Source of the DNA: Capsulimonadales bacterium
GTDB taxonomy: Bacteria; Armatimonadota; Armatimonadia; Armatimonadales; Armatimonadaceae
Direction: 5' to 3'
DNA: 64,000 nucleotides
NCBI GenBank assembly: GCA_033762295.1
Contig: JANRLW010000093.1
Location: 1 to 64,000 of the forward strand
The notes below the pieces were generated by a model. That model had not been told where the DNA came from. It was given only the letters and a program-made list of their open reading frames with translations, and made no database searches. The translations under genes and the position numbers were made by a program. Below, piece after piece: positions 2,549-22,272 of the stretch; the first letter of the stretch is position 1, and each line of letters starts with the position of its first letter.

Positions 2549-2596
2549 GATCGGTGTCCCTTTCAAAATGCGCGTAAATTAACGATCGGCGGAAAC

Positions 2597-2780: not shown

Positions 2781-3494
2781 ATGAATCAGCCTACATCGCG
2801 GCGCGCCGCCTTTACCCTGATCGAGCTGCTCGTCGTCATCGCCATAATCGCGATACTTGCCGCCATCCTGTTCCCGGTCTTCGCTCAGGCACGGGAAAAA
2901 GCCCGACAGACGTCCTGCCTTTCCAATAACAAGCAGTACGCCCTGGCGACGCTGATGTATCTTCAGGATTATGATGAGACCTTTCCGATGTCCGCCTATC
3001 TGAACCAGGTGTGCGTCGCAACGTTCTATCAGGTGGTCGAACCGTACGTCAAGAACCAGCAGGTCACCCGTTGCCCGAGCGAGGACAGCGCGATCCGGAT
3101 TGCGGATCTGGTCGGCTTCCCGTGCGCCGGAACCCCGCCGTTCACCAGCTACGTGGTCAATCACGCGCTATTCGTCAACGGGTTCGTCCCGGGCATCTCG
3201 GCGACGACCCTCGGCGCGGTGAACCGCTCCGCCGAGACGATCATGATCTACGACGGCAACGCCACCTTCGGCGCGGCGCCCGGACAGCAGATCCAGCTGG
3301 TACAGGCCCGGCATACGGGAACGTTCAGCGCGAGTTTCGTCGACGGACACGTCAAGGCGATTCAGGCGACCGAGACCGGCAAAGCGAATCAGTTCACGGT
3401 CGCCGGACCGGGGCGGGAACTCAAGGTATACACCATCGGCGCGAACGGTGGTTTCTATGCGGGCGGAACGGAGTGCCTCGGTATTCCGCAGTAG
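2781..3494 (+). CDS. Prepilin-type N-terminal cleavage/methylation protein, DUF1559/H-X9-DG type
   Basis: [59 protein letters not shown]. Confidence 0.9.
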
Positions 3495-6054: not shown

Positions 6055-8427
6055 ATGGCACTGTATCGAAATCGACGCGGCCCGCAAGCACGGGCCGCTT
6101 TCCCGCAGATAGCTCCTCCGGCAGCACGGCAAGTACGGACGATCGTAACGGCCGTAACGGCGGTGGCGACGATGACGGCACTGAACGGGACCGTCGCCCC
6201 GGCTTCCGCACAGACGCCGGTACGCGGCTGGCTCAACTGGCGCGGCCCCGAACAGACCGGCGTGTCCCGCGAAACCGGCCTGCCCGACACTTGGACACCC
6301 GGCGGCGTCAACGATCTCTGGTCGATCCCGATCTCCGGCGGCGGAACGCCCGTCATCGCGAATGGCAGGGTCTTCGCGTTCGGCTACTCCGGTCAGGGCG
6401 CGGATCTGCAGGAAGTGCTGTTCTGCGCGGACGCCGAAACCGGCAAAATACTCTGGCAGCAACGGTTCAACGACTATCTCTCCGACATTACCTACGACCG
6501 GTATGCCATCGGCAGCCCGTGCGTCGACGCGGAGACGGGAAACGTCTACGTCCTTACCTCCGCCGGCGTTTTCGCCGCCTTCACTCCGGCCGGGAAGAAG
6601 CTCTGGCAACACCCGATGATGGAGTCTCTCGGTCGCCTGACCTTCACCAACGGGCGAACGGGCGGGCCGACGATCGAGGAGGATCTGGTCATCGTCCGTG
6701 GGATCACCGCCAACTGGGGCGGCGAGGGCGCGGCGATGGACCGTCTCTATGCTTTCGATAAGCGGACCGGCCAGCTCGTTTGGGGGTGCAGTCCGGGGGT
6801 CCCGCCCAAGGACAACTCCTTCGCCCGGCCGATCTTCGGTTACCGCAACGGCAAGCGCGTCTTCTACACCGGCGCGGGCGACGGCAGCCTGATTTGCGTC
6901 AACGCGCGCACCGGCGAAACCCTCTGGCGCTACCCGATCTCGGCGGGCGGGATGAACGCCACCGTCCTCCTCTACAAGGACACGGTGATCGGTATCCATG
7001 CCGATGAAAACCTGGACTCCTCCGATGCCGGGCGCATGACCGCGGTGCGTGTCAATTCCGAACCGAAAGCCGCCGAAACCGGACCACCTCTCCTGGACAG
7101 ATCGGCCGAAGCCTGGCGCAACGATCTGGGCGTCATCTCCAGTTCGCCGGTTCTCGACGGGAATCGCATCTATCAGGTGGACAAAACAGGGCATATCTGT
7201 GGGGTCAACGCCGACACCGGGGCGGTGATCTTCCGGTATAAGCTCGCGCCGGACCAGTTGCACGCCTCGCCGCTACTCGCCGACGGAAAGCTGTACGTGC
7301 CGATGCAGAACGGCCTGTTTTACATCCTCAGGCCAGAGGCGAACGGCGTACGGGAACTGGCGAAGGTACAACTGGCGGGCCGCTGTATCGGCGCGCCCTC
7401 CGCCTGGAACGGCAAGGTCTACGTTCACACCACCGAAAAACTGTACTGCTTCGGGAAGAAAGGCAACAACCCCGGTCTGCCGAAGCCGAACGCGCTGCCC
7501 GCCGGACGAAAGCCGGCGGTCGGCCCGACCGCCGCCCTGCAGATCCTGCCGTCCGAGGTGACGTTGCGGCCGGGCGAAAAGGCGGTCTTCACCGTGCGCG
7601 GAATCGATGCCAACGGCTTCGTCACCCGACAGTTCGACAGCGCGAACGTACGGTGGGCCAAATACATCCCGCCGACCGCGCGTGTCCGCTCGGAGATGGA
7701 TGCCTCGTTCAATACCCGCGGCGAACTGACCGTCGCCGAGGGAGCGAAACCGTCGGCCGGAGCGTTCGAAGCGACCGTGGACGGCTTCAAGGGGACGATT
7801 CGCGGACGCGTCCTTCCGAAACTGCCGCTCACCGAGGACTTCGAATCCTTCCAGCCGACCGAGTCCCTGCCGTCCGCGCCGGAAGAGAAGTTCGCCTACC
7901 CGCCATTGCCATGGATCGGTGCGCGGTTCAAGTTCGATATTCGCGAACTCGACGGCAACAAGGTCTTCGCCAAGACCCTCGATAACATCTTCTTCCAGCG
8001 CGCGACCGTCTTTATCGGGCATCCGGACGAGAAAAATTACACCTTCGAGGCGGATGTCATGGCGGACGGCAACCGGCGCACCCTCGGCACGGTCGGCGTC
8101 ATCAACCAGCGTTATTACATCGTTCTGACCGGGAACGCGCAGGAACTGGAAGTGAACTCCAACCAGGAGCGGATCAAGGCGACCGTTCCTTTCAAATGGC
8201 AGCCCAAGACCTGGTACCGGATGAAGACGCGGGTGGACGTCGCTCCGGACGGTTCGGGCATCGTACGGGCGAAAGCCTGGAAGAAGGGCGACCCGGAACC
8301 GGCGGCATGGACGATCGAAGTGCCGCATCGTCAGGCGCATACGAGCGGCTCGCCCGGCCTGTTCGGATTCTCGCCGCAAAGTCTGTTCAAAGTCTATATC
8401 GATAACCTTTCGATCACGCCGAATTAG
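6055..8427 (+). CDS. PQQ-like beta-propeller protein with additional C-terminal beta-rich domains (4 of 7); start uncertain
   Basis: WLNWRGP, propeller blades to about aa 465, then ~300 aa beta-rich extension ending YIDNLSITPN; starts 1 nt after the upstream stop. Confidence 0.8.
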   Translation: MALYRNRRGPQARAAFPQIAPPAARQVRTIVTAVTAVATMTALNGTVAPASAQTPVRGWLNWRGPEQTGVSRETGLPDTWTPGGVNDLWSIPISGGGTPVIANGRVFAFGYSGQGADLQEVLFCADAETGKILWQQRFNDYLSDITYDRYAIGSPCVDAETGNVYVLTSAGVFAAFTPAGKKLWQHPMMESLGRLTFTNGRTGGPTIEEDLVIVRGITANWGGEGAAMDRLYAFDKRTGQLVWGCSPGVPPKDNSFARPIFGYRNGKRVFYTGAGDGSLICVNARTGETLWRYPISAGGMNATVLLYKDTVIGIHADENLDSSDAGRMTAVRVNSEPKAAETGPPLLDRSAEAWRNDLGVISSSPVLDGNRIYQVDKTGHICGVNADTGAVIFRYKLAPDQLHASPLLADGKLYVPMQNGLFYILRPEANGVRELAKVQLAGRCIGAPSAWNGKVYVHTTEKLYCFGKKGNNPGLPKPNALPAGRKPAVGPTAALQILPSEVTLRPGEKAVFTVRGIDANGFVTRQFDSANVRWAKYIPPTARVRSEMDASFNTRGELTVAEGAKPSAGAFEATVDGFKGTIRGRVLPKLPLTEDFESFQPTESLPSAPEEKFAYPPLPWIGARFKFDIRELDGNKVFAKTLDNIFFQRATVFIGHPDEKNYTFEADVMADGNRRTLGTVGVINQRYYIVLTGNAQELEVNSNQERIKATVPFKWQPKTWYRMKTRVDVAPDGSGIVRAKAWKKGDPEPAAWTIEVPHRQAHTSGSPGLFGFSPQSLFKVYIDNLSITPN

Positions 8428-8439: not shown

Positions 8440-9968
8440 ATGAAACGAACTGTTATACGCGGCCTTTCCTTCGTTGCGCTGGTGGTCGGCGTCCTGCCGC
8501 TGGTCGCCCTCGCCGGTGACTGGCCGTTCTGGGGGCGGGATGCGTCCCGCAACATGGTGTCGGACGAAACCGGGCTTCCGGTCGCGTTCGAGGCCGGACG
8601 GTACAAAGGCAACACCGAAGAGATCGATATGGCGACGACCAAAAATGTCAAATGGGTCGCCAAGCTCGGTTCGCAGTCCTACGGAAACCCGACGGTCGCC
8701 GGCGGTAAGGTCTTCATCGGCACCAACAACGAATCGCCCCGTGATCCGGCGCTGAAAGGCGACCGCGCGATCCTGCTCTGCCTGGACGAAAAGACCGGCG
8801 AGATGATCTGGCAGCTGGCGATCCCCAAACTCGGCACCGGTAAGGTCAGCGACTGGGAGTTTCTCGGACTCTGCTCCTCTCCGGCGGTGGACGGCGACCG
8901 CGTCTATATCGTCACCAACCGCTGCGAGGTGATGTGCCTCGACGTCAACGGACAGGCGAACGGCAATGACGGTCCGTTCAAGGAAGAGGCGACGTACTAC
9001 GCCGACAAGGGCAAGCCCCCGCATACCGTCGGCGCGAAGGATGCCGACATCCTCTGGAAGTTCGACATGCGGTCCGAACTCGGCGTCTTCCCGCACAACA
9101 TCACCAACTGCGGGCCGCTGATTCTCGGCGACCGGATCGTGGTCACGACGTCGAACGGCGTCGACTGGACCCATACCAACATGCCGAACCCGAAGGCGCC
9201 TACCCTCTGCATGCTCAACAAGAACACGGGGGAACTGCTCGGGGAGGAGGCGAGCGGCGTCTCGACACGGACTCTGCACTCCAACTGGTCGTCTCCGGCC
9301 GGCGGACAGGTTAACGGCAAGGATATCATCATCTACGGCGGCGGCGACGGGTTCTGCTACGGACTGGATACCGAGACCGAGGATAAGGACGGCGTCAAGG
9401 TCTTCAAGGAGTTGTGGCGGTTCGACTGCAATCCGCCGCAGTACCGGACGAAAAACGGCAAGCCGCTCAAGTACGCCACGGCGGACGGACCGAGCGAGGT
9501 CATCGCCACCCCGGTGCTGTTTAAGAACCGTGTCTACGTGCCGATCGGGCAGGACCTGAACACGGCGAGGGCCTAGGAAATTTCGTCTGTCTGGACGCCG
9601 TGACCGGCAAGCCGATCTGGAGCTACGACAAGATCCATCGCTCGCTGTCGACCCCGGGCATCGCCGACGGACTGGTATACGTCGGCGATTACAGCGGATT
9701 CATTCACTGTCTGGACGCCGAAACCGGCAAGCCGTACTGGGTGATGGACACCAAGAGCCATATCTGGGGTTCGCCGCTGGTCGCGGACGGCAAGGTATAC
9801 GTCGGAACCGAGGACGGCGACCTGGTCGTCCTGGCGGCGGGCAAGACGATGAAGGAAGTCGCCCGGATCGATATGCGTTCCCCGGTCTATTCGTCGCCGG
9901 TCGTCGCCAACGGCACGCTCTATGTCGCCACCCCGACGCACCTCTATGCCGTCGGCGGCGCGAAATAA
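8440..9968 (+). pseudogene. PQQ-like beta-propeller protein (5 of 7) split by a 1-nt deletion near 9556; pseudogene or sequence error
   Basis: ORFs 8440..9576 and 9600..9968 join to PIGQD[P]EHGEGLGNFVCLDAVTGKPIW (~509 aa) if one base is restored. Confidence 0.8.
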
Positions 9969-10030: not shown

Positions 10031-10306
10031 ATGCGATACCTGCTTGCGGCGCTGGTCGCCGTGGTGATCCTGCTGCATCAGGATATCTGGAACTGGACCG
10101 ATAAGACGCTCGTCTTCGGGTTTCTCCCGATCGGACTGGCGTACCACGGGGGGTATTCGGTGATGGCGGTCGTTACGATGGCGATTCTGGTGCGCTTCCT
10201 CTGGCCGGCCCACCTGGACGACGAGACGATCACCGAACCGGCCGGATCGACCGGAGCGACCGAACCGCGCGCCGCGCACGCGTCACAGGAGGATTCCGCC
10301 CGATGA
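10031..10306 (+). CDS. DUF3311-like small membrane partner of a sodium:solute symporter
   Basis: Two TM segments, LHQDIWNW...FGFLPIGLAYH; ATGA overlap with the symporter. Confidence 0.8.
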   Translation: MRYLLAALVAVVILLHQDIWNWTDKTLVFGFLPIGLAYHGGYSVMAVVTMAILVRFLWPAHLDDETITEPAGSTGATEPRAAHASQEDSAR

Positions 10307-12024
10307 TTCCGGCCATCATCGTCTTTTGCTATCTCGCCATCGTCCTGTACATCGGCATCTTCGCCTTTCGCAAGGGGGCGTCGTCCGGGGAGGACTTTTT
10401 CCTCGCCAATCGCCGTCTCGGCCCGATGGTCTTTCTCCTGTCGCTGTTCGGAACGAACATGACCGCGGTCGCCATTCTGGGCAGTTCCGGGTTCGCGTAT
10501 CAACGGGGTATCGGCGTCTATGGCCTGATGGCCTCGTCGTCCGGCATCATCATTCCGCTGACGCTGTTCTTCATCGGGACGCGGCTCTGGGCGCTCGGAA
10601 AGCGGTTCGGGCATATGACGCAGGTGCAGTACCTGCGCGACCGCTGGGAGATGCGCGGAATCGGGACCTTTATCTTCGCCCTGACCGCCGTCATGCTCGT
10701 TCCCTACATCATCATCGGCGTGATGGGCGGTGGGGAGACGCTGGAGACGATCAGCGGCGGAGCAGTGCCTTACGAGGTGGGCGGCGCGGTCGTTGCCATC
10801 GTCGTCATGAGCTACGTCTTCTTCGGCGGGATGCGCGGGACCGCCTGGGTCAACACCTTCCAGACCGTCCTGTTCCTCTGCTTCGGCGCGATCGCCTTTA
10901 CGCTGATCGCTCAGAGCCTCGGCGGCTTTCCCGGCCTGATGAACCAGCTGGCCGCCTCGCCGAAAGCCTACCTCCTGTCGCGGGAGCGCATTCCGCCGGA
11001 GGAGTTTCTGAGCTATATGTTCATCCCGCTGTCCTCGATCATGTTCCCGCATATAGCGATCATGTGTATGACGGCGGAAAAGATCACCCATTTCAAGCGT
11101 ACGGTCATCTTCTATCCGCTCTGTATCATGTTTATCTGGCTGCCGTCCGTCTACCTGGGCGTGGTGGCGGCGACCCAGTATCCGAACCTGACGCCGGGTC
11201 AGGCGAACGACGTCATCATCCGTCTGTTGACCGACAACACCAATACGCTGGTTTCGGGAATTCTGGGAGCCGGGATCATGGCCTGCGTCATGGCCTCGGA
11301 CAGTCAGATCCTGGCGCTCAGCACCATGTTCACCGAGGACCTTTTCTCCTACTACGGCGGTCGGGCGAAGTACGGTCCCAAAGCGGAGGTCTGGGCGGGC
11401 CGCGCCTTCATCGTCGCGATCAGTGTCGTGGCCTACGGGATCGCGCTGCTGTTGAAGGACCGGGCCAATATCTTCGACCTGGCGATTCGCTTCGCGTTCT
11501 CCGGGTTCGCCGCCCTCGCCCCGGTGATGCTGGCGGCCCTTTTCTGGAAACGAAGCACGAAGTGGGGAGCGCTGGCCGCCTCGATCTGGGTACTGTTCGG
11601 TGTGCTGGGCATCTGGTACCTGACGGCGATTTCGGACCCGATCGCGCCGAGACCGCCCGCACCGCGCCCTGCCGGAACCGCCCCGCCCGGACGTGGCCCG
11701 TCAGGAACCGCCCTGACGGGACCGGCGACCGGACAGACCGGACCGGGCAGTCCGACCGGACCGACCGCCTCGGCGGGCGGGCCACCGACAGGTGGCGCGG
11801 GACGACCCGCCGGGGGTGGGCCGCCGCGCCCGCCGAGCGTGCGTATCTTCCCGCAACTGGGCGACCTGTTCCTGCGCGGGCCGATCAACGTCACCATCTT
11901 CGGGTTCCTGCCGGTGATGCCGATGGTGCTCGGATCGGCGTTGCTGATGATCGTCGTCTCCCTGCTCACCCGGCCGCCGAGCCAGGCGACGCTGGATCGA
12001 TATTTCCCGCCGAAGAACGATTAA
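10303..12024 (+). CDS. Sodium:solute symporter (SSS/PutP-PanF family)
   Basis: EDFFLANRRLGP, YVFFGGMRGTAWVNTFQ, many TM helices. Confidence 0.9.
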   Translation: MIPAIIVFCYLAIVLYIGIFAFRKGASSGEDFFLANRRLGPMVFLLSLFGTNMTAVAILGSSGFAYQRGIGVYGLMASSSGIIIPLTLFFIGTRLWALGKRFGHMTQVQYLRDRWEMRGIGTFIFALTAVMLVPYIIIGVMGGGETLETISGGAVPYEVGGAVVAIVVMSYVFFGGMRGTAWVNTFQTVLFLCFGAIAFTLIAQSLGGFPGLMNQLAASPKAYLLSRERIPPEEFLSYMFIPLSSIMFPHIAIMCMTAEKITHFKRTVIFYPLCIMFIWLPSVYLGVVAATQYPNLTPGQANDVIIRLLTDNTNTLVSGILGAGIMACVMASDSQILALSTMFTEDLFSYYGGRAKYGPKAEVWAGRAFIVAISVVAYGIALLLKDRANIFDLAIRFAFSGFAALAPVMLAALFWKRSTKWGALAASIWVLFGVLGIWYLTAISDPIAPRPPAPRPAGTAPPGRGPSGTALTGPATGQTGPGSPTGPTASAGGPPTGGAGRPAGGGPPRPPSVRIFPQLGDLFLRGPINVTIFGFLPVMPMVLGSALLMIVVSLLTRPPSQATLDRYFPPKND

Positions 12025-12079
12025 CTCTGCGCAAGAAAAAGGAAGCAAAACGGCGGGAATCGCTGTTGAAAGGGGTGCT

Positions 12080-13174
12080 ATGAACCTCAATACACCTGCA
12101 CCGGAAGCCGTTCGGGACGCCGCGGCCGCGCTTGACGCCCATGTTCGCGAAATCATCGCCTGGCACTTCTCCCCGGAAACGGGCTGTCCGTTCTGGCTCG
12201 AGTGGGCCGAACGCACCGGGTTCGATGCCGTTGCCGAAGTCACCTCCGCCGCCGACCTGCTGAAGTTCCCGCACTTTCAGGACGAATGGCTGCGCGACGA
12301 ACCGAACGAACGCTGGATTCCGAAACCGTATACCGGACGCCCGTTCCTGATCTTTGAGACCGGCGGAACCACCGGGATGCCCAAACAGCGCATCGGCTGG
12401 GAGGATCATCTGCGCGACTACGAGGAGTTTTCCGACTATCTGGACGCGCAGTACCCCGACGCATTCCCGCGCGGCGGCAACTGGCTGATGCTCGGTCCGA
12501 CCGGCCCGCGCCGGTTGCGCCTCGCCATCGAGCACCTGGCGCACGTGCGCGGCGGCTCCTGCTACCACGTCGACCTCGATCCCCGCTGGGTGAAACGACT
12601 GATCGCCAGCAAGGATTTCGAAATCGCCAAACGGTACAAGACGCACGTCGTCGAGCAGGGCGCGACCATTTTGAAAAACCGCAAGGTCAGCTGCCTCTTT
12701 ACCACACCCCTGCTGCTGGAAAGCCTGGACGAACATATCAACGTCCCGGACGCCGGAATCCGGGGCGTCTTCTGCGGCGGAACGCAGATGACGCCGCAGA
12801 CGGTCCGCTTCCTGACCGAGGAGGTGCTGGACTACCGGGCGGCGTTCGTTCCCACCTACGGCAACACGCTGATGGGGCTGGCCTGCTCCCGCCCGCTGAC
12901 ACCCGAGGACAACTGGAGCATCACCTACCATGCGCCGCAGCCGCGGGCCGTTCTCCGGGTCGTGGACCCCGGCGACACGACCAAACAGGTCGATCATGGA
13001 GCCTGGGGGCGCGTCGAACTGACCACGCTGACGAAGGAGTTTTTCATGCCGCGCTTCCTGGAACGGGACGAAGCGATCCGGCGCGAGCCATGGGGTTGTT
13101 TCGCCTGGGACGGCGTCGGCGAGGTGCGCCCGTTCGGCGCGCTGGAAACCAAGGCGATCGAAGGGGTCTATTAG
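12080..13174 (+). CDS. EhpF/GriC-like short adenylate-forming enzyme (aryl-carboxylate activating subunit family)
   Basis: WHFSPETGCPFWL, ETGGTTGMPK P-loop, DLDPRWVK, PTYGNT, ERD, terminal IEGVY, all matching my recollection of EhpF; only 364 aa. Confidence 0.75.
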   Translation: MNLNTPAPEAVRDAAAALDAHVREIIAWHFSPETGCPFWLEWAERTGFDAVAEVTSAADLLKFPHFQDEWLRDEPNERWIPKPYTGRPFLIFETGGTTGMPKQRIGWEDHLRDYEEFSDYLDAQYPDAFPRGGNWLMLGPTGPRRLRLAIEHLAHVRGGSCYHVDLDPRWVKRLIASKDFEIAKRYKTHVVEQGATILKNRKVSCLFTTPLLLESLDEHINVPDAGIRGVFCGGTQMTPQTVRFLTEEVLDYRAAFVPTYGNTLMGLACSRPLTPEDNWSITYHAPQPRAVLRVVDPGDTTKQVDHGAWGRVELTTLTKEFFMPRFLERDEAIRREPWGCFAWDGVGEVRPFGALETKAIEGVY

Positions 13175-13189
13175 AAGGGATCTATCCGA

Positions 13190-14611
13190 ATGTCCGCGCC
13201 TTATATCCCGGTCCTGCGCAAGGGCCAACCGTACGACAGCATGGACCGCAACGAACTGAAGAGCGTTCGCGGCGGCGAAACCGTCGGGACCGTCAGCATG
13301 ACGAACGCCGCGATGATCCGGCGTGACCTGCGAAAATCCGCCCGGGACGCGTTCCGGGAGTTCACCGTCGCCCGGATGCTGGAAATCAGCGCGTCGGCGG
13401 GACGCCTGTTTCTGGAGGAGACGCTGCCCCTCGGCGGCGGGGGGACGCAGACGCCGCAACAGTATATCGAAGCGCTCTCCGGGACCAGCGGTCTGCCGCA
13501 CTCGCTCATTCGGCGCAATATGGCCAAGGTCCACCAGGTCTTCACCGAGATGCCGACCATCCTGAAGGGGCTGACACGCGGCATGGACCCCGGAATCCTG
13601 GACACCGGGTACGGGGAGCAGGCCGGGGTGCCGGTCAGCTACTTCGCGGTGACGAACGCGCTGGGCGTCGTTCTTCCGAGCAACTCGCCGGGGGTAAACT
13701 CGCTGTGGATGCCGGCCATCGCGCTGAAGGTCCCGGTGGTGCTGAAACCGGGCCGCGAGGAGCCGTGGACACCGTTCCGGATCGTGCAGGCGTTCATTGC
13801 GGCGGGCTGTCCGGCGGAGGCGTTCTCGTTCTATCCCACCGACCACGAGGGTAGCGCGGCCATCATGGAAGCCTGCGGACGCGCCCTGATCTTCGGAGAC
13901 CAGGGCACGGTCGAGCGGTACGCCGGGAATCCGGGCGTCCAGGTGCATGGGCCGGGCTGGAGCAAAGTCATTATCGGCGAGGACTGTATCGAGGAGTGGC
14001 CGGAATATATCGATTTGATCGCCGATTCGATCGCCGAGAACGGCGGACGCAGCTGTATCAATGCCTCGGCGGTCGTGGTTCCGAAGTACGCCGATCGGAT
14101 CGCCGACGCTCTGGCGCGGAAACTGGCCGAAATCCGACCGCGTTCGGCGACCGACGAGCAGGCGACGCTGGCCGGGTTCGCCAATCCGAAGATGGCGGAG
14201 GCCATGGACGCCGCCGTTACCGAGGGGTTGAAGACCCCCGGCGCGGAGGAGGTGACCGCGAAGTATCGCGGCGCGGACCGACTGGTGACGCAGGACGGCA
14301 GCACCTATCTGTTGCCGACGGTCATCCGCTGTGCGTCGTTCGAGCATCCGCTGGCGAACCGCGAGTATCTCTTCCCGTATGCCAGCGTCGTCGAGACGCC
14401 GCAGACACAGGTCACCGAGAAGATCGGCCCCTCGCTGGTCGTAACGGCGTTGACCCGGGACGAGCGATTCATCCGGGAACTGCTCGACTCGCCGCACATC
14501 GAGCGGCTGAACATCGGCCCCCTGCCGACCTCGCGGGTCCGGTGGGACCAGCCGCACGAGGGAAATCTGTTCGAATTTCTATATCGCCGCCGTTCCATTC
14601 AGCGCGCCTGA
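13190..14611 (+). CDS. Aldehyde dehydrogenase-fold protein, probable acyl-adenylate/acyl reductase (EhpG/GriD/LuxC-like)
   Basis: PSNSP, LKPG, catalytic Cys in ENGGRSCINAS, EYLFP; HGPGWSK replaces the canonical ELGGK. Confidence 0.75.
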   Translation: MSAPYIPVLRKGQPYDSMDRNELKSVRGGETVGTVSMTNAAMIRRDLRKSARDAFREFTVARMLEISASAGRLFLEETLPLGGGGTQTPQQYIEALSGTSGLPHSLIRRNMAKVHQVFTEMPTILKGLTRGMDPGILDTGYGEQAGVPVSYFAVTNALGVVLPSNSPGVNSLWMPAIALKVPVVLKPGREEPWTPFRIVQAFIAAGCPAEAFSFYPTDHEGSAAIMEACGRALIFGDQGTVERYAGNPGVQVHGPGWSKVIIGEDCIEEWPEYIDLIADSIAENGGRSCINASAVVVPKYADRIADALARKLAEIRPRSATDEQATLAGFANPKMAEAMDAAVTEGLKTPGAEEVTAKYRGADRLVTQDGSTYLLPTVIRCASFEHPLANREYLFPYASVVETPQTQVTEKIGPSLVVTALTRDERFIRELLDSPHIERLNIGPLPTSRVRWDQPHEGNLFEFLYRRRSIQRA

Positions 14612-14644: not shown

Positions 14645-15706
14645 ATGTACGACACCAGAGCCTATTCCGCCGACGCCGCGACCTCTCCGCTGGCTCCGAG
14701 GACGATTCCGCGCCGGGATCCGACCGAACGCGACGTGCGCATCGAGATCCTTTTCTGCGGTATCTGCCACTCCGACCTGCACACGGTCCGCAATGAGTGG
14801 AGCAGCATCATGCCGACGGTCTATCCGTGCGTTCCCGGTCATGAGATCATCGGGCGCGTGACCGAGGTCGGATCGTATGTCACCCGGTTCGCGCCCGGCG
14901 ATCTGGTCGGAGTCGGCTGCCTGGTGGATTCGGATGGCACCTGCCCGAACTGTCAGGCCGGCTTCGAGCAGTTCTGTCCGAACGCCGTGTTCACCTACAA
15001 CGGACCCGACCGGCATGGGACCGCTCCGGTCACCTACGGCGGATACTCCGATACGATCGTGGTGGACGAGGGGTTTGTTCTGCGCGTTCCGACCAACCTG
15101 GACCTGGCCGGAGCCGCCCCGCTCCTGTGCGCCGGGATCACCACCTACTCCCCGCTGCGTCGGGCGGGTGTCAAGGCGGGATCGAAGGTCGGCATCGTCG
15201 GTCTCGGCGGACTGGGCCACATGGGAGTCAAATTCGCAAGCGCGATGGGGGCGCATGTCGTGGTATTCACGACGTCGCCGCGCAAGATCGAGGACGCCCT
15301 GCGCCTCGGCGCGGACGAAGTCCTTCTCTCGACGGATGCCAACGCCTTGCGGGCGCACGCCGGGACTTTCGATTTTATCCTCGATGCCGTTTCTGCGGAG
15401 CACGATCTCAACACCTACCTGCAGCTTCTCGGTCGCGGCGGTAACCTGACCCTGGTCGGCGCGCCGGAAAAGCCCATGCCGGTGTCGTCCTTCGCCCTGC
15501 TGTTCGGAAACCACTCGCTCTCCGGATCGCTGATCGGCGGTATCCCCGAAACACAGGAGATGCTCGACTTCTGCGGCGAGCGGAATATCACCGCCGATGT
15601 CGAGGTCATCGCGATGCAGCAGGTCAACGAGGCGTACGAGCGAATGCTCCGGTCGGACGTAAAATACCGTTTCTCGATCGATATGGCGTCGCTGGCGTCG
15701 GAATAG
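14645..15706 (+). CDS. Zn-dependent NAD(P)H aldehyde reductase/alcohol dehydrogenase (CAD/YahK-like)
   Basis: CGICHSDLH, PGHEIIG, APLLCAGITTYSPL, GLGGLGHMG, DVKYRFSID. Confidence 0.92.
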   Translation: MYDTRAYSADAATSPLAPRTIPRRDPTERDVRIEILFCGICHSDLHTVRNEWSSIMPTVYPCVPGHEIIGRVTEVGSYVTRFAPGDLVGVGCLVDSDGTCPNCQAGFEQFCPNAVFTYNGPDRHGTAPVTYGGYSDTIVVDEGFVLRVPTNLDLAGAAPLLCAGITTYSPLRRAGVKAGSKVGIVGLGGLGHMGVKFASAMGAHVVVFTTSPRKIEDALRLGADEVLLSTDANALRAHAGTFDFILDAVSAEHDLNTYLQLLGRGGNLTLVGAPEKPMPVSSFALLFGNHSLSGSLIGGIPETQEMLDFCGERNITADVEVIAMQQVNEAYERMLRSDVKYRFSIDMASLASE

Positions 15707-15720: not shown

Positions 15721-16899
15721 ATGTCCGTCGCGGAAATCGACTGGCAGCCGCGAACCCGCCTGATCTTCGGCGCGGGGCGCCTGGTTCGTCTGGGCGACCT
15801 GGCGCGGGAGATCGGCGGAAAACGCGCCCTGCTCGTCACCGACCCCGGAGTTCGGGCCGCCGGTTACGCCGATACCGCCGGCGAACGGCTGGAGACCGCC
15901 GGGGTTGTCGTGTCGGTGTTCGACGAGGTGCCGGAGAACCCGACGTCGGCGACCGTCGAACGGTGCGCGGAAGCGGCCCGTGCGTTCGCCCCGGACCTGC
16001 TGATCGGGCTGGGCGGCGGCAGTGCGATGGATACGGCCAGGGGCGGGAACTTCCTCTACACCAACGGCGGGGCGATGCCGGACTATCGCGGATACGGGAA
16101 GGCCGAAAAGCCGATGCTGCCGCTGATCGCCGTTCCGACGACCGCCGGCACGGGCAGCGAGATGCAGTCGTACGCGGTCATCTCCGACGCTGAAACGCAT
16201 CGGAAGATGGCCTGTGGCGACCCGAAGGCGGCGGCCCGCGCCGCTCTGCTCGACCCGGAACTGACGCTTACCTGCCCGCGCCGGGTGACCGCCTGCGCCG
16301 GGATCGATGCGATCGCGCATGCGGTGGAAACGGCCGTCACGACGAAGGGAACCGCACTGTCGCGTCTGTTCTCACGCGAGGCGTTTCGTCTGCTCGCGGC
16401 GAACTTTCGGCGCGTGCTCGACGCGCCCGACGATCTCGACGCCCGTGGCGCGATGCTGCTCGGCGCGGCGTACGCCGGAAGCGCGATCGAGAACAGCATG
16501 CTCGGAGCGGCGCATTCCGCCGCCAATCCCCTGACCGCCCGGTCGAAGATCGTCCACGGACAGGCGGTCGGAATGATGTTGCCGTACGTCGTCGCGTTCA
16601 ACGCCTCGGAACCGGAAATCGCCGCCGCCTATGAAACGTGGGTTCGGCAGAGCGGACCGCCGATCGGAGAACCCGCCGTGGACTCGCTGATCGAATTCCT
16701 GCGCGGTTGCCTGATGGCCGCCGGTTTTCCGTCCACTCTGCGCGAGGCGGGGGTCACGGAGGAAGCGATTCCTCTCCTGGCGAAAGAGGCGGCGGAACAA
16801 TGGACCGTGCAGTTCAATCCCCGCCCGATCGGGGAGGAGGACTTCGTCGCCCTTTACCGGGATGCCCTGCACGGCGTCCCACCAGCAATTCGGAGGTAA
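15721..16899 (+). CDS. Iron-containing alcohol dehydrogenase
   Basis: GLGGGSAMD, PTTAGTGSE, DAIAHAVE, AHSAA, VHGQA. Confidence 0.92.
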   Translation: MSVAEIDWQPRTRLIFGAGRLVRLGDLAREIGGKRALLVTDPGVRAAGYADTAGERLETAGVVVSVFDEVPENPTSATVERCAEAARAFAPDLLIGLGGGSAMDTARGGNFLYTNGGAMPDYRGYGKAEKPMLPLIAVPTTAGTGSEMQSYAVISDAETHRKMACGDPKAAARAALLDPELTLTCPRRVTACAGIDAIAHAVETAVTTKGTALSRLFSREAFRLLAANFRRVLDAPDDLDARGAMLLGAAYAGSAIENSMLGAAHSAANPLTARSKIVHGQAVGMMLPYVVAFNASEPEIAAAYETWVRQSGPPIGEPAVDSLIEFLRGCLMAAGFPSTLREAGVTEEAIPLLAKEAAEQWTVQFNPRPIGEEDFVALYRDALHGVPPAIRR

Positions 16900-16907
16900 G
16901 GAAGCCC

Positions 16908-18254
16908 ATGCAGTACGATCTGTCTCGATGGTTGGTCGCCGCGCTTCTGATCGGTATTCCGGCGGCGCGCAGTGGGGCGCAGGACTGGCCGAACTGGCGG
17001 GGAGCGCAGTACAACGGCTCGTCGGCGGCAAAGAACCTTCCGGTGAAGTTCTCCCCCACGGAAAACGTGAAGTGGGCGGCGGACCTGCCCGGTCCGTCCG
17101 CCGCGACTCCCGTGATTTCGGGCGGGAATGTCTTCGTTTCCAGCGTCGACCTGAAAAACCGGACGCTCGTCGCGCTTTGCCTGGATCGGGCCACCGGAAA
17201 GGTGAAGTGGCAGCACTCGATCGGCAGCGGCTATCTGCCCGGCGGTGAGGGTAACGCCATTCAGTTGGATGAAAAGAGCAACTATGCTTCGCCGTCCCCG
17301 GTCACCGATGGCCGGCGCGTCGTGTTCTTTTTCGGAAACGGGGACCTCGCCGTGTTCGATCCGCTGGGGAAAAAACTGTGGCAGCGGAATCTGCAGAAGG
17401 AGTTCGGGGATTTCGCGTTCCAGTGGACGTTCGCCAGTAGCCCGGTCCTCTACGGCGGAAAACTGTACGTGCAGATTCTTCAGCGGAACCGTCCGGCAGG
17501 ATCGCGCGGCAAGGCGGACGCGCCCTCGTATCTGCTGGCGCTGTCTCCGGAGACCGGACAGGAACTGTGGCGCAGCGAGCGTCCGACCCCGGCGATCATG
17601 GAATCGCGCGAGGCGTACTCCACCCCGATCCCGCATGAGTACAACGGGCGGAAGGAACTGGTGATTGCCGGCGGCGATTTTGTCACCGGGCACGATCCGA
17701 ATACGGGCCGGGAACTATGGCGTTGGGGCACGTGGAACGAGGGGCATCGTGAAGCGTGGTGGCGTCTGGTGCCGTCGCCGGTCGTGGGGGAGGGGGTCGT
17801 GCTGGTTTGTGCGCCGAAACGCGCCCCGGTCTACGCGGCGAAACTGGGCGGCAGCGGGGTGCTCGGAGCGGATGCCCTAGCCTGGAAGAGCGAGGATCGC
17901 AGTTCGGTGACGAGCGATGTGCCGACCCCGCTCTACTACCAGGGGAAATTCTTTATTCTCAGCGACCTGCGCCGAACGCTGTCCTGCGTCGATCCGAAAA
18001 CCGGCGCGGTGGTGTGGTCGGTGCCGACGCCGGGGCGCGAACCCTGCTGGGCCTCCCCGACCGGCGCGGATGGTAAACTCTATCTCATGACCCTGGGCGG
18101 GACGGTGATCGTGGTTGACGCCGCGACCGGCAAGACGCTGGCCGAAAACCCGATGGATGAACCGGGGTCCGAGATCCGTTCGACCGTCGCCGTCGCGCAT
18201 GGCGCACTGTTCATTCGGACCTCGAACAAACTTTACTGCATCGCAAAAGGATAG
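16908..18254 (+). CDS. Secreted PQQ-binding-like beta-propeller protein (6 of 7)
   Basis: ATG 16908 after AAGGAAG; signal peptide, DWPNWRG, YASPSPVTDG. Confidence 0.85.
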   Translation: MQYDLSRWLVAALLIGIPAARSGAQDWPNWRGAQYNGSSAAKNLPVKFSPTENVKWAADLPGPSAATPVISGGNVFVSSVDLKNRTLVALCLDRATGKVKWQHSIGSGYLPGGEGNAIQLDEKSNYASPSPVTDGRRVVFFFGNGDLAVFDPLGKKLWQRNLQKEFGDFAFQWTFASSPVLYGGKLYVQILQRNRPAGSRGKADAPSYLLALSPETGQELWRSERPTPAIMESREAYSTPIPHEYNGRKELVIAGGDFVTGHDPNTGRELWRWGTWNEGHREAWWRLVPSPVVGEGVVLVCAPKRAPVYAAKLGGSGVLGADALAWKSEDRSSVTSDVPTPLYYQGKFFILSDLRRTLSCVDPKTGAVVWSVPTPGREPCWASPTGADGKLYLMTLGGTVIVVDAATGKTLAENPMDEPGSEIRSTVAVAHGALFIRTSNKLYCIAKG

Positions 18255-18262
18255 CACACATA

Positions 18263-19429
18263 ATGACGAGACAGCGAGGGTGCCGGTTACCGAAATGCGG
18301 CCTGTGGGCGATCATCGGCATCGCGGCGTTGCCCGGCGGGTGGCCGGTGTTCGCCCAGTCCGCGCCGACCCTCCCGGTTCCCTCGCCGGCCGCTCCGACC
18401 CCGGGCGCACGGTCGCTGCGGGTCGCTCCGGGCAAACTTCCGGATAAATTACGCCGGGCATGGCGGTTCCGAACGCGCGGACCGATCACCTCCTCGCCGG
18501 TCGCCGAAGCGGGACGGGTGTACGTCGGTTCCGAGGACGGTTTCGTCTATGCCGTCCGTCTGACCGACGGACGCAAGGTCTGGTCGTTCAAAACCGGCGG
18601 ATCGGTCGAGGCGACGCCCCACCTGACCGGCGAACTCGTCGTCATCGGCTCCTCCGACGGCAACCTCTATGCGCTCGACAGGGTCACCGGAAAACTGCGC
18701 TGGAAGTTCGCCACCGAGGGGAAGATTCTGGGCGGAGCGAACTCCGCGCCGCGCGCCGACGGCAAGGGACGAACGATCGCGGTCGGCAGTTACGATAACC
18801 GGGTCTACGGGATCGATGCCCGTACCGGACGCAAGGTCTGGGCCTACGAGACCGATAACTACGTGAACGGGATGCCCGCCATCTCGGGAAATCGGGTCAT
18901 CATCGGAGGGTGCGACGGAACTCTCCATGTCATCGACCTGAACACCGGAAAACGGCTGCTCGGTCTGCCGATCAGTGACTATATCGCCGGGTCCACCACG
19001 GTCGCCGGAACGCGCGCCTATGTGGGGCATTACGGGAACGCGGTGGTCTGCGCGGATGTCGTCTCCGGCGAAACCGTCTGGACCTATCGCGATCGTGGTT
19101 TTCCCTACTTTTCCACCCCGGCGGTGACCGGCGACCGGGTCATTCTCGGCGGGCGGGATCGGCGCGTCCATGCCATCCGGCGGGACGATGGCAAGGGACT
19201 CTGGCTCTTCCGGACCGGCGGCAAGGTGGATAGTTCCCCGACCGTCTGCGACGGCAAGGTGGTGATCGGTTCCGAGGACGGCAACCTGTACCTGCTCGGT
19301 CTGGACGACGGCAAGGAGCGTTGGCGATATCAGGTCGGCAGTCCGGTCATCAGTTCACCGTACGTGATCGACGGAACCGTTCTGGTCGGGGCGGACGACG
19401 GCTACCTTTACGCCTTTCGGGGGCGTTAA
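18263..19429 (+). CDS. BamB/AfsK-type PQQ-like beta-propeller protein (7 of 7)
   Basis: Regular W.F.T...SSP....G.VY.GS.DG.LYA repeats. Confidence 0.85.
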   Translation: MTRQRGCRLPKCGLWAIIGIAALPGGWPVFAQSAPTLPVPSPAAPTPGARSLRVAPGKLPDKLRRAWRFRTRGPITSSPVAEAGRVYVGSEDGFVYAVRLTDGRKVWSFKTGGSVEATPHLTGELVVIGSSDGNLYALDRVTGKLRWKFATEGKILGGANSAPRADGKGRTIAVGSYDNRVYGIDARTGRKVWAYETDNYVNGMPAISGNRVIIGGCDGTLHVIDLNTGKRLLGLPISDYIAGSTTVAGTRAYVGHYGNAVVCADVVSGETVWTYRDRGFPYFSTPAVTGDRVILGGRDRRVHAIRRDDGKGLWLFRTGGKVDSSPTVCDGKVVIGSEDGNLYLLGLDDGKERWRYQVGSPVISSPYVIDGTVLVGADDGYLYAFRGR

Positions 19430-19455
19430 TCCCGATTAATCGGGATTAATCTCGA
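19426..19455. repeat. 24-bp perfect palindrome and 10-bp tandem repeat joining two convergent stop codons
   Basis: TTAATCCCGA TTAATCGGGA TTAATCTCGA; 19426-19449 is self-complementary. Confidence 0.85.
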
Positions 19456-22196
19456 TCCGGTCGCGCGGCCGGGACTTTGCCTCGCACCGGCGCCGGCGGC
19501 TCGCTGCGTACGCCCCGGACGCTCTTCCAGAGCAGGCGGTTCATCAGGACAGGGTCCGCGCTGTCCGGACGTTTCAGGTCCATTTTGGCCGAGGCCGCGA
19601 GGAGCCTCTCCCACTCCGAACCGGGCGCACCCGCCGTCACCTTCTCCTGAAAGATCGACGGCGACGGCATGATCGCCGTGAAGGGCGCATCGTTGCTCGG
19701 AGCGCTGTCCCAGACGTCGAAGTGATCGGCGATGGCATCGTACTGGCTCAACGGGGGAAGGCCGAGCAACAGTTCCATCGTCCTCAGAACGCTGTCCGTG
19801 TTGTAGAACCGGTGATCGACCGTCCCTTTTTTCACCCACGGGCTGATAACCAGACAGGGTGAGCGGTGCGTATCGATATGATCCGGGCCGTCCTGCGCGT
19901 CATCCTCGATCACGAAGACCGCGGAACTCTTCCAGATCGGGCTTTTCGACAGCAGTTCGACAAACTGGCCGATGGCGTAATCGTTGTCGGCGACGTAGGC
20001 GCGGGGTGTGGGTGCGCCTTTGGACAGGCCGTTGGTATGGTCGTTGCAAAAGCGGACCATGACGAACGCCGGGTAACTCTCGCCGGTCGGGTCCTTCGCC
20101 ATGAACTGATCGAACTCGTTTTTGAACTCCAGGAAGCGGCAGGTGGCTTTATGCTTGCCGTAGGTCTCCATTTTGAACGGCGCACCCGCCCGGAGCGGCC
20201 CTTCGCTGTCGGCGTAATCCATGTCGTAGCGACGGAAATCGTAATCGGTGATCCCGGCGAGGTCGTGCCCCTCCGGCTGCAGTCCGGCATGGGCGGGATA
20301 GTTATCCGGGACGACCGGCGCGGTCCCCGCCGAGAGGCCGAATCCGTAATTCCGGTATGGCAGCCCGGCCCGCTTCACGGCATCCCAGATACCGCCGTTC
20401 GGACCGTCGGCGATGTCGACGATCGGGGGCATGGCTCCGAGGATCGACAGCGTCTTGCCATCGACGTCCCTGGCCGGGTGTCCGCCGACGAGGTAACCGT
20501 TGTTCTGGCCTTCGAAATCGTAGCGTGATTCGGCGGAACGACCGGAGTAGTTATAGGGCAGGTTTTTGATGACATACTCGTTGGCGTAGGAACGGGTGGA
20601 CCAGGTCCAGCCGTCGCCGCTCGCCTCTCCGGAAACGAAGAACCGGTCGAACAGCGCGAAGCGGCGCACGATCGCGTGAACGTTCGGCGTGACTTCCTCT
20701 CCGAAGAGGGTCAGGTTCGGGTCGCCGTCGCCGAGGGGACGCCCGTTTTCGTCCTTCAGGTCGCCGAGAACCTGATCGTAGGTCCGGTTCTCGCGGACGA
20801 TGTAGAAGACGTGTTTGATCTTCCCGGCTTTGCGCCCGAACCGGGCCAGCGGGTTGGTTTTCGGGCGCACCATGCTCTGCGCGATACGCGCATCCTGCAG
20901 CACCTGGCGGGTGAGAGCCGGCAGGGCTTGCGGGGTCGGCAGGTCGATCCACTGCACGGTCCCTTCGATCATCATCAGGTCGTAGAAGTTGTCGTCGGAC
21001 TTGCGCCGCGGATCGTAGGGGGTGAAGGTCGGGTTGGGAAGGCGTCGGTCGATCCCCTTGGCGTTGGCGACGAGCAGTCGCCGGTTATTAGGCAGGGCGG
21101 CGACGCCGGTCGGGTACCACCCGGTCGGAAGAAAGCCAAGAACCCGGCGCGTTCGCACATCGACCTGCGCGACGGCGTTGAGATCGCCGCAGGCGACGTA
21201 CAGGGTCGATTCGTCGGGAGAGAGCGCCAGTCCGACGGGCGAGACGCCCGGCAGGTCGGCGACGGTCTCCGGGCGCAGTTTTATCGTGCCGATCACCTTG
21301 CGGGAGGGGACATCCAGGATGGAGACGGTATCTGCGGTCGCGTTGGCCACGTAAAGCCGGGACTGGTCGGCATTGAAGAGGAGAGCGCAGGGATGCCCGC
21401 CGGTTTCGATACTTGCGAGCAGGGTCGGTGGCTGTGTCGGGGTAACGTTGCCGGTCGCCAGAGCGTAGACGCGCCCGTCCCGCTGGCTGGTGACGAAGAC
21501 GACACTGCCGTCGTTGAGGGCGGCGATGGCGAAGGGATAGTTCGGCAGCGGGGAGATCGATCCGAAGTCGAAGCGATGGATCTCTTTCTTCGTCGTGAGA
21601 TCGTACACGGAGACGGTTCCGTGCTCCCGGACGGGGGCCAATCCCTTCATCGTGGCGAAGACGGACGGTGTGTTATTGGCGACGAAGAGGCGATTACCGG
21701 CCACGGCCACACCGGCCGGCGTATCGCCGGGCTGTAATTTGCGAATATCCTCCTTGCGTGGTCCGTCGATGGTCGCGGTGCGGGAGAGGGTTTTGCCGTC
21801 GGCGGTCAGCGAGAGGACGACGACGGCGTCGTTCCCGCCCTGTCCGGCATAGACGGTATAGGAACCGTCGGAGTTACGAACGGCGGCGAGACCGTAGTAC
21901 AGTCCGTCGCGCGACCCCTGCGGGAAGAGGAGGGAAGCGGTTTTCGCACCGGAGTTCAGATCGAAGACGGTTAAATATTGTCGGAAGCCGATATCGGACA
22001 CCAGAGCGAACCGGCGATCCGGTGTGACGATGACGTTGATCGGCATCGAACCGACGTCGGTTTTGGTCCCGGTCGGCGAGATGAAGCGACCGGTGACCAG
22101 CGGGTCCTGCGCCCGCGCCGGGGTCGTTCCCGTCACGGCAAGGAGGCCGCCGAGGGCAAAAAAGAGCGAAAAATCGATGCGCCGGTCCTGTTTCAC
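19446..22196 (-). CDS. Secreted YVTN/YncE beta-propeller plus alkaline-phosphatase-superfamily phosphoesterase
   Basis: GTG 22196 with GGAGA SD; signal peptide; LYVANA and PTGWYPT blades; IKHVFYIVRENRTYDQVLGD, NDHT, EDDAQDGPDHID. Confidence 0.85.
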   Translation of the reverse strand: MKQDRRIDFSLFFALGGLLAVTGTTPARAQDPLVTGRFISPTGTKTDVGSMPINVIVTPDRRFALVSDIGFRQYLTVFDLNSGAKTASLLFPQGSRDGLYYGLAAVRNSDGSYTVYAGQGGNDAVVVLSLTADGKTLSRTATIDGPRKEDIRKLQPGDTPAGVAVAGNRLFVANNTPSVFATMKGLAPVREHGTVSVYDLTTKKEIHRFDFGSISPLPNYPFAIAALNDGSVVFVTSQRDGRVYALATGNVTPTQPPTLLASIETGGHPCALLFNADQSRLYVANATADTVSILDVPSRKVIGTIKLRPETVADLPGVSPVGLALSPDESTLYVACGDLNAVAQVDVRTRRVLGFLPTGWYPTGVAALPNNRRLLVANAKGIDRRLPNPTFTPYDPRRKSDDNFYDLMMIEGTVQWIDLPTPQALPALTRQVLQDARIAQSMVRPKTNPLARFGRKAGKIKHVFYIVRENRTYDQVLGDLKDENGRPLGDGDPNLTLFGEEVTPNVHAIVRRFALFDRFFVSGEASGDGWTWSTRSYANEYVIKNLPYNYSGRSAESRYDFEGQNNGYLVGGHPARDVDGKTLSILGAMPPIVDIADGPNGGIWDAVKRAGLPYRNYGFGLSAGTAPVVPDNYPAHAGLQPEGHDLAGITDYDFRRYDMDYADSEGPLRAGAPFKMETYGKHKATCRFLEFKNEFDQFMAKDPTGESYPAFVMVRFCNDHTNGLSKGAPTPRAYVADNDYAIGQFVELLSKSPIWKSSAVFVIEDDAQDGPDHIDTHRSPCLVISPWVKKGTVDHRFYNTDSVLRTMELLLGLPPLSQYDAIADHFDVWDSAPSNDAPFTAIMPSPSIFQEKVTAGAPGSEWERLLAASAKMDLKRPDSADPVLMNRLLWKSVRGVRSEPPAPVRGKVPAARPDRD

Positions 22197-22239
22197 GTTC
22201 CGTTCTCCCTGAAAAATCCGAAGGAAGGGATTCAGGGAC

Positions 22240-22272
22240 ATTGTGCCGCATCCTTGTTAAGCCAAGATTAAG
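22240..22272 (-). promoter_or_regulatory. Pho-box-like direct repeat with -10 element for the phosphoesterase gene
   Basis: Minus strand CTTAATcttggCTTAAC (11-bp period), CACAAT 15 nt after the second TTAA. Confidence 0.6.

Follow-up and report, generated by a model that had tools for sequence, protein, structure and literature searches.

Introduction

So far, two-protein carboxylic acid reductases that need no carrier have been described only in a handful of pathways to antibiotics and pigments. In the phenazine pathway to D-alanylgriseoluteic acid, the structure paper on EhpF reportedly proposed that EhpF and EhpG make the 6-formyl compound from phenazine-1,6-dicarboxylate by way of an adenylate. 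For grixazone, the available text of PMC10179220, citing Suzuki et al. 2007, describes GriC as making the acyl-AMP of 3-amino-4-hydroxybenzoate and GriD as reducing it to the aldehyde. A related arrangement is described in the available text of the LuxC-LuxE paper (7XC6), where a lid-less adenylating enzyme forms a complex with a Cys-only reductase of aldehyde dehydrogenase (ALDH) fold that uses NADPH, the acyl group being carried on Cys364 of the flexible LuxE tail. Here we analyze two adjacent genes, P0001 and P0002, on a 64,000-nucleotide (nt) stretch of DNA from a Capsulimonadales bacterium of the Armatimonadota (GCA_033762295.1, contig JANRLW010000093.1, positions 1 to 64,000), which we call the window. 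Judging from their homologies, the two gene products are likely to act together in reducing a carboxylic acid without a carrier protein, in the manner of EhpF/EhpG (GriC/GriD).

This type of enzyme has drawn little attention. Our literature searches on two-component reductases of this kind, and on the cluster in the phyla where we find it, returned only Streptomyces papers citing GriC/GriD. In the text of a 2025 review of the ALDH superfamilies, LuxC is mentioned, while EhpG, GriD, grixazone, and phenazine occur zero times each.

Results

P0001 is a lid-less adenylating enzyme of the EhpF clade

A first-pass annotation of this DNA, made from the sequence alone, had described two open reading frames (ORFs) on the + strand separated by 15 nt, and both were found as described.

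12080..13174, + strand: P0001, EhpF/GriC-type lid-less adenylating enzyme, 364 amino acids (aa), matched to EhpF in the PDB
13190..14611, + strand: P0002, candidate EhpG/GriD-type ALDH-fold reductase, 473 aa, assigned from its active-site alignment and an ALDH-fold model

Purine-rich ribosome-binding stretches lie 5' of both start codons. An ORF on the opposite strand at 11966-14557 had no homology support and was set aside as the usual artefact of high-GC DNA.

In a single-sequence search of the PDB, P0001 matched EhpF with an E-value of 4e-46, residues 13-364 aligning with residues 13-366 of the 366-aa chain. A profile built from close relatives of P0001 strengthened the match to 2.5e-56, with all other matches at E-values of at least 0.06. 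The end of P0001 is level with that of EhpF, and the protein therefore has no room for a lid domain, as had been claimed from its length. The end-to-end match to EhpF, with nothing else significant in the PDB, identifies P0001 as a full-length lid-less member of the EhpF clade and not as a truncated coenzyme A (CoA) ligase. The general family models are less informative. Pfam AMP-binding scored 31.9 bits against a cut-off of 29.9 and covered residues 196-299 only, and every NCBIfam match to P0001 or P0002 fell far below its cut-off, the weak matches of P0001 being CoA ligases.

The adenylation motifs noted earlier are in place, with ETGGTTGMPK at residues 93-102, YGNT at residues 260-263, and a C-terminus ending in AIEGVY. 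The sequence (I/V)EG(V/I)Y is found at the extreme C-terminus of all five EhpF-like proteins compared (P0001 and the homologues from loci L001, L002, L003, and L004), which come from bacteria and an archaeon. Kept despite an overall identity of 33-40%, it looks like a family signature.

P0001 is a single-copy gene in its own genome. A tblastn search of plasmids with P0001 returned 29 records, all below 60% identity, of which 19 were from Streptomyces, four from Pantoea, two from Streptantibioticus, and one each from Burkholderia, E. coli, Halomarina, and Halalkalicoccus. Several of the Streptomyces plasmid homologues carry the annotation arylcarboxylate reductase or phenazine biosynthesis protein. 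In both the Burkholderia record and the ehp-like phenazine cluster of E. coli, the gene that follows the EhpF homologue encodes an "aldehyde dehydrogenase family protein"; the same gene pair is labelled ehpF/ehpG in the available text of a Proteus paper. One further homologue, on plasmid p1 of Streptomyces angustmyceticus (L003, 6920-8002), is EhpF-like and annotated as arylcarboxylate reductase; it sits amid futalosine-pathway (mqn) genes without an adjoining ALDH-like gene.

P0002 keeps the catalytic Cys of the ALDH fold and has lost the general base

Alignment of P0002 with the ALDH-like genes that adjoin EhpF homologues on the Burkholderia, E. coli, and Halalkalicoccus plasmids extended over the full length at 26-30% identity. 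The Cys and Asn are common to P0002 and these partners, and GPGxSK replaces ELGGK in three of the four sequences. In P0002 itself the motifs read HGPGWSK (residues 253-259) and GGRSC (residues 285-289), again as first described. Pfam Aldedh matched P0002 with an E-value of 4e-15, and a profile of 51 members of the P0002 family, compared with classical ALDHs, gave KauB as its best match (1.3e-28). In this profile alignment Cys289 is the catalytic Cys, Asn165 the oxyanion Asn, and Glu392 the second conserved Glu, while the position of the general-base Glu is occupied by Gly254; the earlier proposal that the catalytic Cys is kept and the general base lost is thus borne out. The substitution is a property of the family, since the Glu position holds Gly in 48 of the 51 aligned sequences and Glu in none, with Cys289 and Asn165 each kept in 50. 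The Glu of the KPSE motif is a discriminator for NAD-dependent ALDHs. P0002 has Arg189 at this position in the profile alignment, and Arg is found there in 17 of the 51 family members.

A structure model of P0002 was built from the 51 sequences with a predicted local distance difference test score (pLDDT) of 95.5; an earlier model from 22 close homologues was poor (pLDDT 67.9) and was not used. The predicted structure has the ALDH fold, with a Foldseek E-value of 5e-24 and a VIA-align match to GapN at Z 35.1 and a root-mean-square deviation (rmsd) of 2.7 Å over 436 residues. LuxC of 7XC6 ranked 24th by VIA-align (Z 31.9, rmsd 3.5 Å, 427 residues), so that the P0002 model resembles LuxC no more closely than it does ordinary ALDHs (Z 33-35). 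As modelled, P0002 is about equally distant from the hydrolytic ALDHs and from LuxC.

Homology searching with P0002 recovered 1665 cluster representatives at an E-value limit of 1e-3, of which 350 also passed a limit of 1e-30. Three of the top matches are natural fusions of the reductase to an iron-containing alcohol dehydrogenase (Fe-ADH), P0241 (872 aa), P0251 (856 aa), and P0244 (625 aa), which independently support the view that the product of the reductase passes to an alcohol dehydrogenase. The reductase P0183 of Armatimonas rosea is 71% identical to P0002. As this is a named species, and one that we take to be cultured, the system may be open to experiment.

The pair belongs to a conserved operon

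The first-pass annotation had called the pair an orphan. This description does not hold, as the two genes are part of a conserved operon that also encodes a presumed importer and alcohol dehydrogenases. The operon comprises 12 genes over ~16 kb (3516 to 19429), all on the + strand and tightly packed, in the order of four exported PQQ_2/BamB-like propellers, DUF3311, symporter, P0001, P0002, YahK-like zinc reductase, Fe-ADH, and two exported propellers. DUF3311 and the symporter overlap by 4 nt, 55 nt separate the symporter from P0001 and 15 nt P0001 from P0002, and the gaps onward are 33, 14, 5, and 8 nt. Leader and signal peptides were judged by eye from the sequence. The genes around the pair are as follows.

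3516..4778, + strand: PQQa, exported PQQ_2/BamB-like beta-propeller, 420 aa; Pfam PQQ_2 at E 1.8e-38, hydrophobic N-terminal leader followed by DWPQWRG
4854..6053, + strand: PQQb, exported PQQ_2-like beta-propeller, 399 aa; Pfam PQQ_2 at E 6.1e-39, leader peptide, syntenic in many loci
6055..8427, + strand: PQQc, exported 790-aa propeller with an extra C-terminal domain; Pfam PQQ_2 at E 4.3e-29
8440..9968, + strand: PQQd, propeller in two ORFs (8440-9576 and 9600-9968), both matching PQQ_2, with a frame change near 9550
10031..10306, + strand: DUF3311 small membrane protein; Pfam DUF3311 at E 3.5e-8
10303..12024, + strand: sodium:solute symporter family transporter, presumed acid importer; Pfam SSF at E 2.9e-43
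14645..15706, + strand: YahK/Ahr-like zinc aldehyde reductase of NADPH type; PDB YahK at E 1.6e-123, NCBIfam Ahr 299 bits against a cut-off of 470
15721..16899, + strand: iron-containing (group III) alcohol dehydrogenase; Pfam Fe-ADH at E 2.4e-50
16905..18254, + strand: PQQe, exported PQQ_2-like propeller, 5 nt past the Fe-ADH stop codon; Pfam PQQ_2 at E 2.9e-29, leader followed by DWPNWRG
18263..19429, + strand: PQQf, exported propeller of Beta-prop_ACSF4 type; Pfam Beta-prop_ACSF4 263 bits against a cut-off of 133, leader peptide, syntenic at the 3' end of the cluster

In other phyla, too, PQQa orthologues precede the reductase genes. An atlas look-up with PQQc gave only generic PQQ-repeat clusters, one of them with 5781 members named PQQ-repeat protein. 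In PQQd the reading resumes in another frame across ~9550-9600, and either a frameshift or misassembly at a short run of C accounts for this; its orthologues elsewhere appear uninterrupted. PQQf carries a signal peptide and is therefore exported, and it cannot be a cytoplasmic partner. In the animal protein ACSF4/AASDH, the Beta-prop_ACSF4 propeller is fused to an adenylating enzyme. In the genome of the window, which is 94.5% complete, no PqqC match was found and no PqqE match rose above its cut-off; this is a weak negative, since the PqqC control was positive in none of 14 control genomes.

The NCBIfam matches of the symporter (PutP, PanF, ActP, and MctP) all fell below their cut-offs. Assignment as an MctP orthologue was ruled out at 54.7 bits against a cut-off of 625. 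In Sinorhizobium, according to the available text of PMC9100948, a DUF3311 gene adjoins that of the SSF monocarboxylate (pyruvate) permease MctP. The nearest named families of the Fe-ADH act on small polar aldehydes, but all of these NCBIfam matches are far below cut-off, and the YahK/cinnamyl-alcohol-dehydrogenase relatives of the zinc reductase are broad. Neither an aromatic nor an aliphatic acid is favored as the substrate.

Scanning the operon with Pfam revealed no carrier-protein gene and no regulator gene. No Rfam match at an E-value of 0.1 or below was found in positions 1-24000, and promoter-like and terminator-like sites were no commoner than in shuffled sequences. The genes flanking the operon are listed below.

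1181..2566, - strand: propeller; none of the flanking genes shows a link to the operon
2781..3494, + strand: protein with a prepilin-type N-terminus, judged by eye from the translation
19446..22241, - strand: 931-aa protein with a phosphoesterase match and a weaker lactonase-propeller match
22268..23269, - strand: NERD nuclease-related protein, no link to the operon seen
23605..26088, + strand: PSCyt1/PSCyt2/PSD1 protein, typical of planctomycete-like genomes, no link to the operon seen

The two genes co-occur across phyla

At least 8000 relatives of P0001 were found in the database. The best 120 are 70-86% identical to it, with lengths of 301-399 aa, and those with a named organism come from Armatimonadota, Verrucomicrobiota, Planctomycetota, and one Chloroherpetonaceae bin. 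In a collection holding one genome per species, at least 568 stretches were confirmed (568 of the 599 pattern matches listed).

We compared 80 loci, searched by tblastn with the window proteins at a coverage of at least 50%. Downstream genes were counted in the 47 loci with at least 6 kb beyond the adenylating gene, and upstream genes in the 59 loci with at least 6 kb before it. The reductase lay downstream in 32/47 loci and the Fe-ADH in 27/47, while the zinc reductase was found in 0/47 and is thus a genome-specific addition of a second aldehyde reductase. Upstream, the symporter was present in 33/59 loci, PQQd in 46/59, and PQQc in 45/59. The cluster recurs in Armatimonadota, Verrucomicrobiota, and Planctomycetota.

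The reductase is present in 44 loci. Fewer than 600 nt separate it from the P0001 orthologue in 25 of them and 1.2-7 kb in the other 19, where one extra propeller gene usually fills the space. The inserts between the two genes in two loci, L083 and L019, encode a kinase-WD40 protein, a protein with a weak methyltransferase-domain match, a cytochrome c, and ORFs of no family; no acid-biosynthesis or halogenase-type tailoring gene was found in them by Pfam. The kinase, a 1301-aa Ser/Thr kinase with WD40 propellers, is encoded at 13131-17036 of the verrucomicrobial locus L083, between the adenylating and reductase genes. We also searched five whole genomes from among the 15 loci with no reductase nearby, and an orthologue (55-66% identity) was found elsewhere in four and no match in one.

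In an even sample of 151 genomes of the same phylum (G000 included), a P0001 orthologue was present in 13 and a P0002 orthologue in the identical 13. These fall in four families, with 4/6, 5/6, 2/14, and 1/8 genomes positive. Related genomes are not independent, and we therefore drew no statistic from this co-occurrence.

The same module is also present in Archaea. On plasmid 2 of Halalkalicoccus jeotgali (L001, 5487-9545) a symporter, an EhpF-like protein, and an ALDH are encoded in the same order without propellers, adjoining a short-chain dehydrogenase/reductase (SDR) gene and an IclR regulator. The haloarchaeal symporter is 30% identical to that of the window over 432 residues.

A complex of P0001 and P0002 is predicted

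The P0001-P0002 pair was modelled as a complex with a score of 0.72 (0.72, 0.72, and 0.70 in separate runs), compared with 0.00 for the best of three controls. The runs agreed in at least 91% of contacts, and the pLDDT of the partners was at least 87. The predicted contacts join residues 214-218, 238-249, and 278-279 of P0001 to an N-terminal arm of P0002 (residues 17-19 and 39-45). The model supports binding of P0001 to P0002 without showing it. A bolder idea, which belongs to the doubtful pathway reading given below, is that the N-terminal arm of P0002 might act in trans and take over the part that the lid plays in other adenylating enzymes.

Discussion

The proposed reaction

Family membership, the active-site residues, the co-occurrence and synteny of the genes, and the fusion of the reductase to an alcohol dehydrogenase directly support the assignment of the pair. 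What we infer for a reductase of the EhpF/EhpG type is the chemistry together with the transfer of the acyl group, the cofactor used, the direction of the pathway, and the import of the acid. The acid would probably enter through the DUF3311/sodium:solute symporter pair encoded just upstream. P0001 would use ATP to adenylate the carboxylate, giving acyl-AMP and pyrophosphate (PPi), and the acyl group would then pass to Cys289 of bound P0002 as a thioester. Reduction of this thioester with NAD(P)H by P0002 would give the aldehyde, which the conserved Fe-ADH, and in this genome also the YahK-like reductase, may take on to the alcohol. Since P0001 lacks the lid domain, no CoA or phosphopantetheine half-reaction would be expected; since P0002 lacks the water-activating Glu, the thioester would not be hydrolyzed. 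Our guess for the cofactor is NADPH, which seems likelier than NADH because Arg189 stands at the Glu position of KPSE. The earlier suggestion of a carboxylate reductase dependent on ATP and NAD(P)H that needs no carrier protein is well supported by homology, and the operon has no carrier-protein gene.

Several observations weigh against this assignment. The chemistry is carried over from relatives that are only 33-40% identical. The first-pass annotation had looked to profile and structure comparison to separate the pair from CoA ligases and hydrolytic ALDHs; the outcome favored the proposal for P0001, whose only significant solved relative is EhpF with no CoA ligase significant, and for P0002 through its full-length alignment with the partners of EhpF homologues, but the best solved matches of P0002 are hydrolytic ALDHs (KauB, E 1.3e-28; GapN, Z 35.1). 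The latter do not refute the assignment, because structures of EhpG or GriD are absent among the matches. P0002 keeps Asn165 and Glu392 and is less stripped down than LuxC. The reductase is not nearby in 15/47 loci, the symporter is found in only 33/59, and there is no obvious reason for a cell to spend ATP and NADPH on reducing an imported acid. The predicted complex has weaknesses of its own. In calibration, 116 of 157 solved complexes but also 2 of 215 mismatched pairs scored as high as 0.72, counts that hold only roughly here as the complex was run on custom alignments. The related LuxC-LuxE complex (7XC6) is solved and the score could partly reflect model memory; no sequence similarity to LuxE or LuxC is detectable in P0001 or P0002. 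Residues of the predicted interface are no more conserved than the others (0.79 against 0.77 for the rest of P0001, and 0.69 against 0.74 for P0002), and the named contacts include neither active site, so that the route of the adenylate to Cys289 is not given by the model.

Other explanations and the role of the operon

Two other readings of the chemistry were considered. In one, P0001 would be an acyl-CoA synthetase and P0002 a CoA-acylating aldehyde dehydrogenase running in reverse, for which SauT and SauS of the sulfoacetate pathway are a precedent. P0001 does carry an AMP-binding Pfam domain, its weak NCBIfam matches are CoA ligases (all far below cut-off), and the public names of its homologues are PaaK-like. 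We nevertheless hold this route to be very unlikely, as P0001 stops where EhpF stops and lacks the C-terminal domain that performs thioester formation in the superfamily; the LuxC-LuxE paper, in its available text, argues likewise for the lid-less LuxE. The other reading keeps the acyl-adenylate and turns the pathway around to conserve energy. The Fe-ADH would oxidize an alcohol, P0002 would convert the aldehyde to the thioester, and P0001, working backwards, would form acyl-AMP and, with PPi, ATP. Estimated from textbook free energies, the reductase reaction as a whole lies near equilibrium as long as PPi is not hydrolyzed. The fusions of reductase and Fe-ADH, being AdhE-like, recall an enzyme that is known to work in either direction, and a reductase without the hydrolytic Glu would preserve the energy of the thioester. 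Set against these points, Arg189 at the position that discriminates NAD from NADP and the NADPH-type YahK-like reductase both point to reduction, the upstream transporter resembles importers of carboxylates and amino acids, and we know of no adenylate-forming enzyme that runs in the ATP-yielding direction in vivo. An oxidative role is thus extremely unlikely in our estimation, and carrier-free reduction of an acyl-adenylate is the chemistry that we favor.

Given this reductive chemistry, the purpose of the operon allows more than one interpretation. We propose, tentatively and with considerable doubt, an undescribed envelope-to-cytoplasm pathway in Armatimonadota, Verrucomicrobiota, and Planctomycetota. 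The exported propellers, apparently without pyrroloquinoline quinone (PQQ), would act on an external compound, a carboxylate would be imported by DUF3311 and the symporter, and its ATP-driven reduction to aldehyde and alcohol would form the entry to a catabolic or redox-balancing route and commit the carboxylate to it. The same chemistry could instead be biosynthetic, the acid being made in the cell and the aldehyde or alcohol handed to the envelope for the exported propellers to bind or process, with the symporter serving otherwise. All characterized relatives are indeed biosynthetic, coming from grixazone and phenazine clusters. The interleaving of the reductase genes with exported propellers, an extra propeller gene lying between the two in many loci, would also suit such a role, as would the presence of the symporter in only 33/59 loci. 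Pfam scanning of the operon found, however, neither a gene for biosynthesis of an acid precursor nor an exporter, the inserts in L083 and L019 hold no acid-biosynthesis or halogenase-type tailoring gene, and the symporter-reductase triad occurs on the haloarchaeal plasmid without propellers. A biosynthetic role therefore seems unlikely to us.

If the reductase chemistry holds, these genes would represent a common and uncharacterized conversion of acid to alcohol in environmental bacteria. They would also offer a compact two-gene biocatalyst that needs no phosphopantetheinylation and a way into the study of the exported PQQ-like propellers, a large family in these phyla. Were the envelope-to-cytoplasm pathway to prove true as well, the EhpF/EhpG type would be a widespread tool of primary metabolism and not just a curiosity of natural-product pathways.

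Comparison with known systems

The type I carboxylic acid reductases of Nocardia and Mycobacterium join adenylation, carrier, and reductase domains in one chain and, in the description available, perform the same net reaction of acid, ATP, and NADPH to aldehyde as proposed here. In contrast to these, the two proteins and the rest of the operon gave no Pfam match to a phosphopantetheine carrier domain or an SDR-type reductase domain, and the reductase has an ALDH fold. A different parallel is provided by AdhE. The P0002 relatives P0241 and P0251 are fused to Fe-ADH in an AdhE-like order, whereas in the window the two are separate genes of one operon; the acyl group would come from an acyl-adenylate made by another enzyme and not, as in AdhE, from acyl-CoA.

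The likeness to LuxE/LuxC lies in the combination of a lid-less adenylating enzyme with an ALDH-fold reductase that has the Cys and lacks the hydrolytic Glu. Membership in that family was rejected, as neither P0001 nor P0002 matched Pfam LuxE or LuxC at an E-value of 0.1 or below, nor at 1 or below in per-member scans. Pfam LuxE matched none of 21 relatives of P0001, and Pfam LuxC matched seven of 51 wider relatives of P0002 and not P0002 itself. The P0001 tail contains no Cys past residue 343, and Cys340 is not conserved in the 21 sequences. With no conserved Cys like Cys364 of LuxE, a swinging acyl-Cys arm is unlikely and the hand-over must differ from that in the Lux system. P0002 also differs from LuxC in keeping Asn165 and Glu392, both of which, by the available text on LuxC, are lost there, and unlike in the lux systems the operon has no LuxD or luciferase.

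The division of labor in GriC/GriD of Streptomyces griseus, compared here through its description in the available text, is the same as that proposed for P0001 and P0002, with an AMP-binding protein and an ALDH-like reductase. The 3-amino-4-hydroxybenzoate of GriC/GriD comes from its own cluster, whereas the operon in the window has no such biosynthetic context. EhpF of Pantoea agglomerans (3HGU, 3HGV, 3L2K) is likewise lid-less and shares with P0001 its length, P-loop, YG(N/S)T motif, and C-terminal IEGVY, and the EhpF/EhpG type has an adjoining ALDH-like partner with the same Cys and GPGxSK-type motif as P0002. Compared with this type, P0001 is only ~33-40% identical and P0002 26-30%, and there are no phenazine genes here. 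Unlike EhpF/EhpG, the present subfamily is 70-86% conserved across phyla and occurs with an importer, alcohol dehydrogenases, and exported propellers. By sequence, then, the pair is a member of the known and little-studied EhpF/EhpG (GriC/GriD) two-protein carboxylic acid reductases and not of LuxE/LuxC. With GriC/GriD and EhpF/EhpG already known, the pair does not found a new class of enzyme; it represents a separate and very strongly conserved subfamily of a known kind, encoded in an operon that has not been described before.

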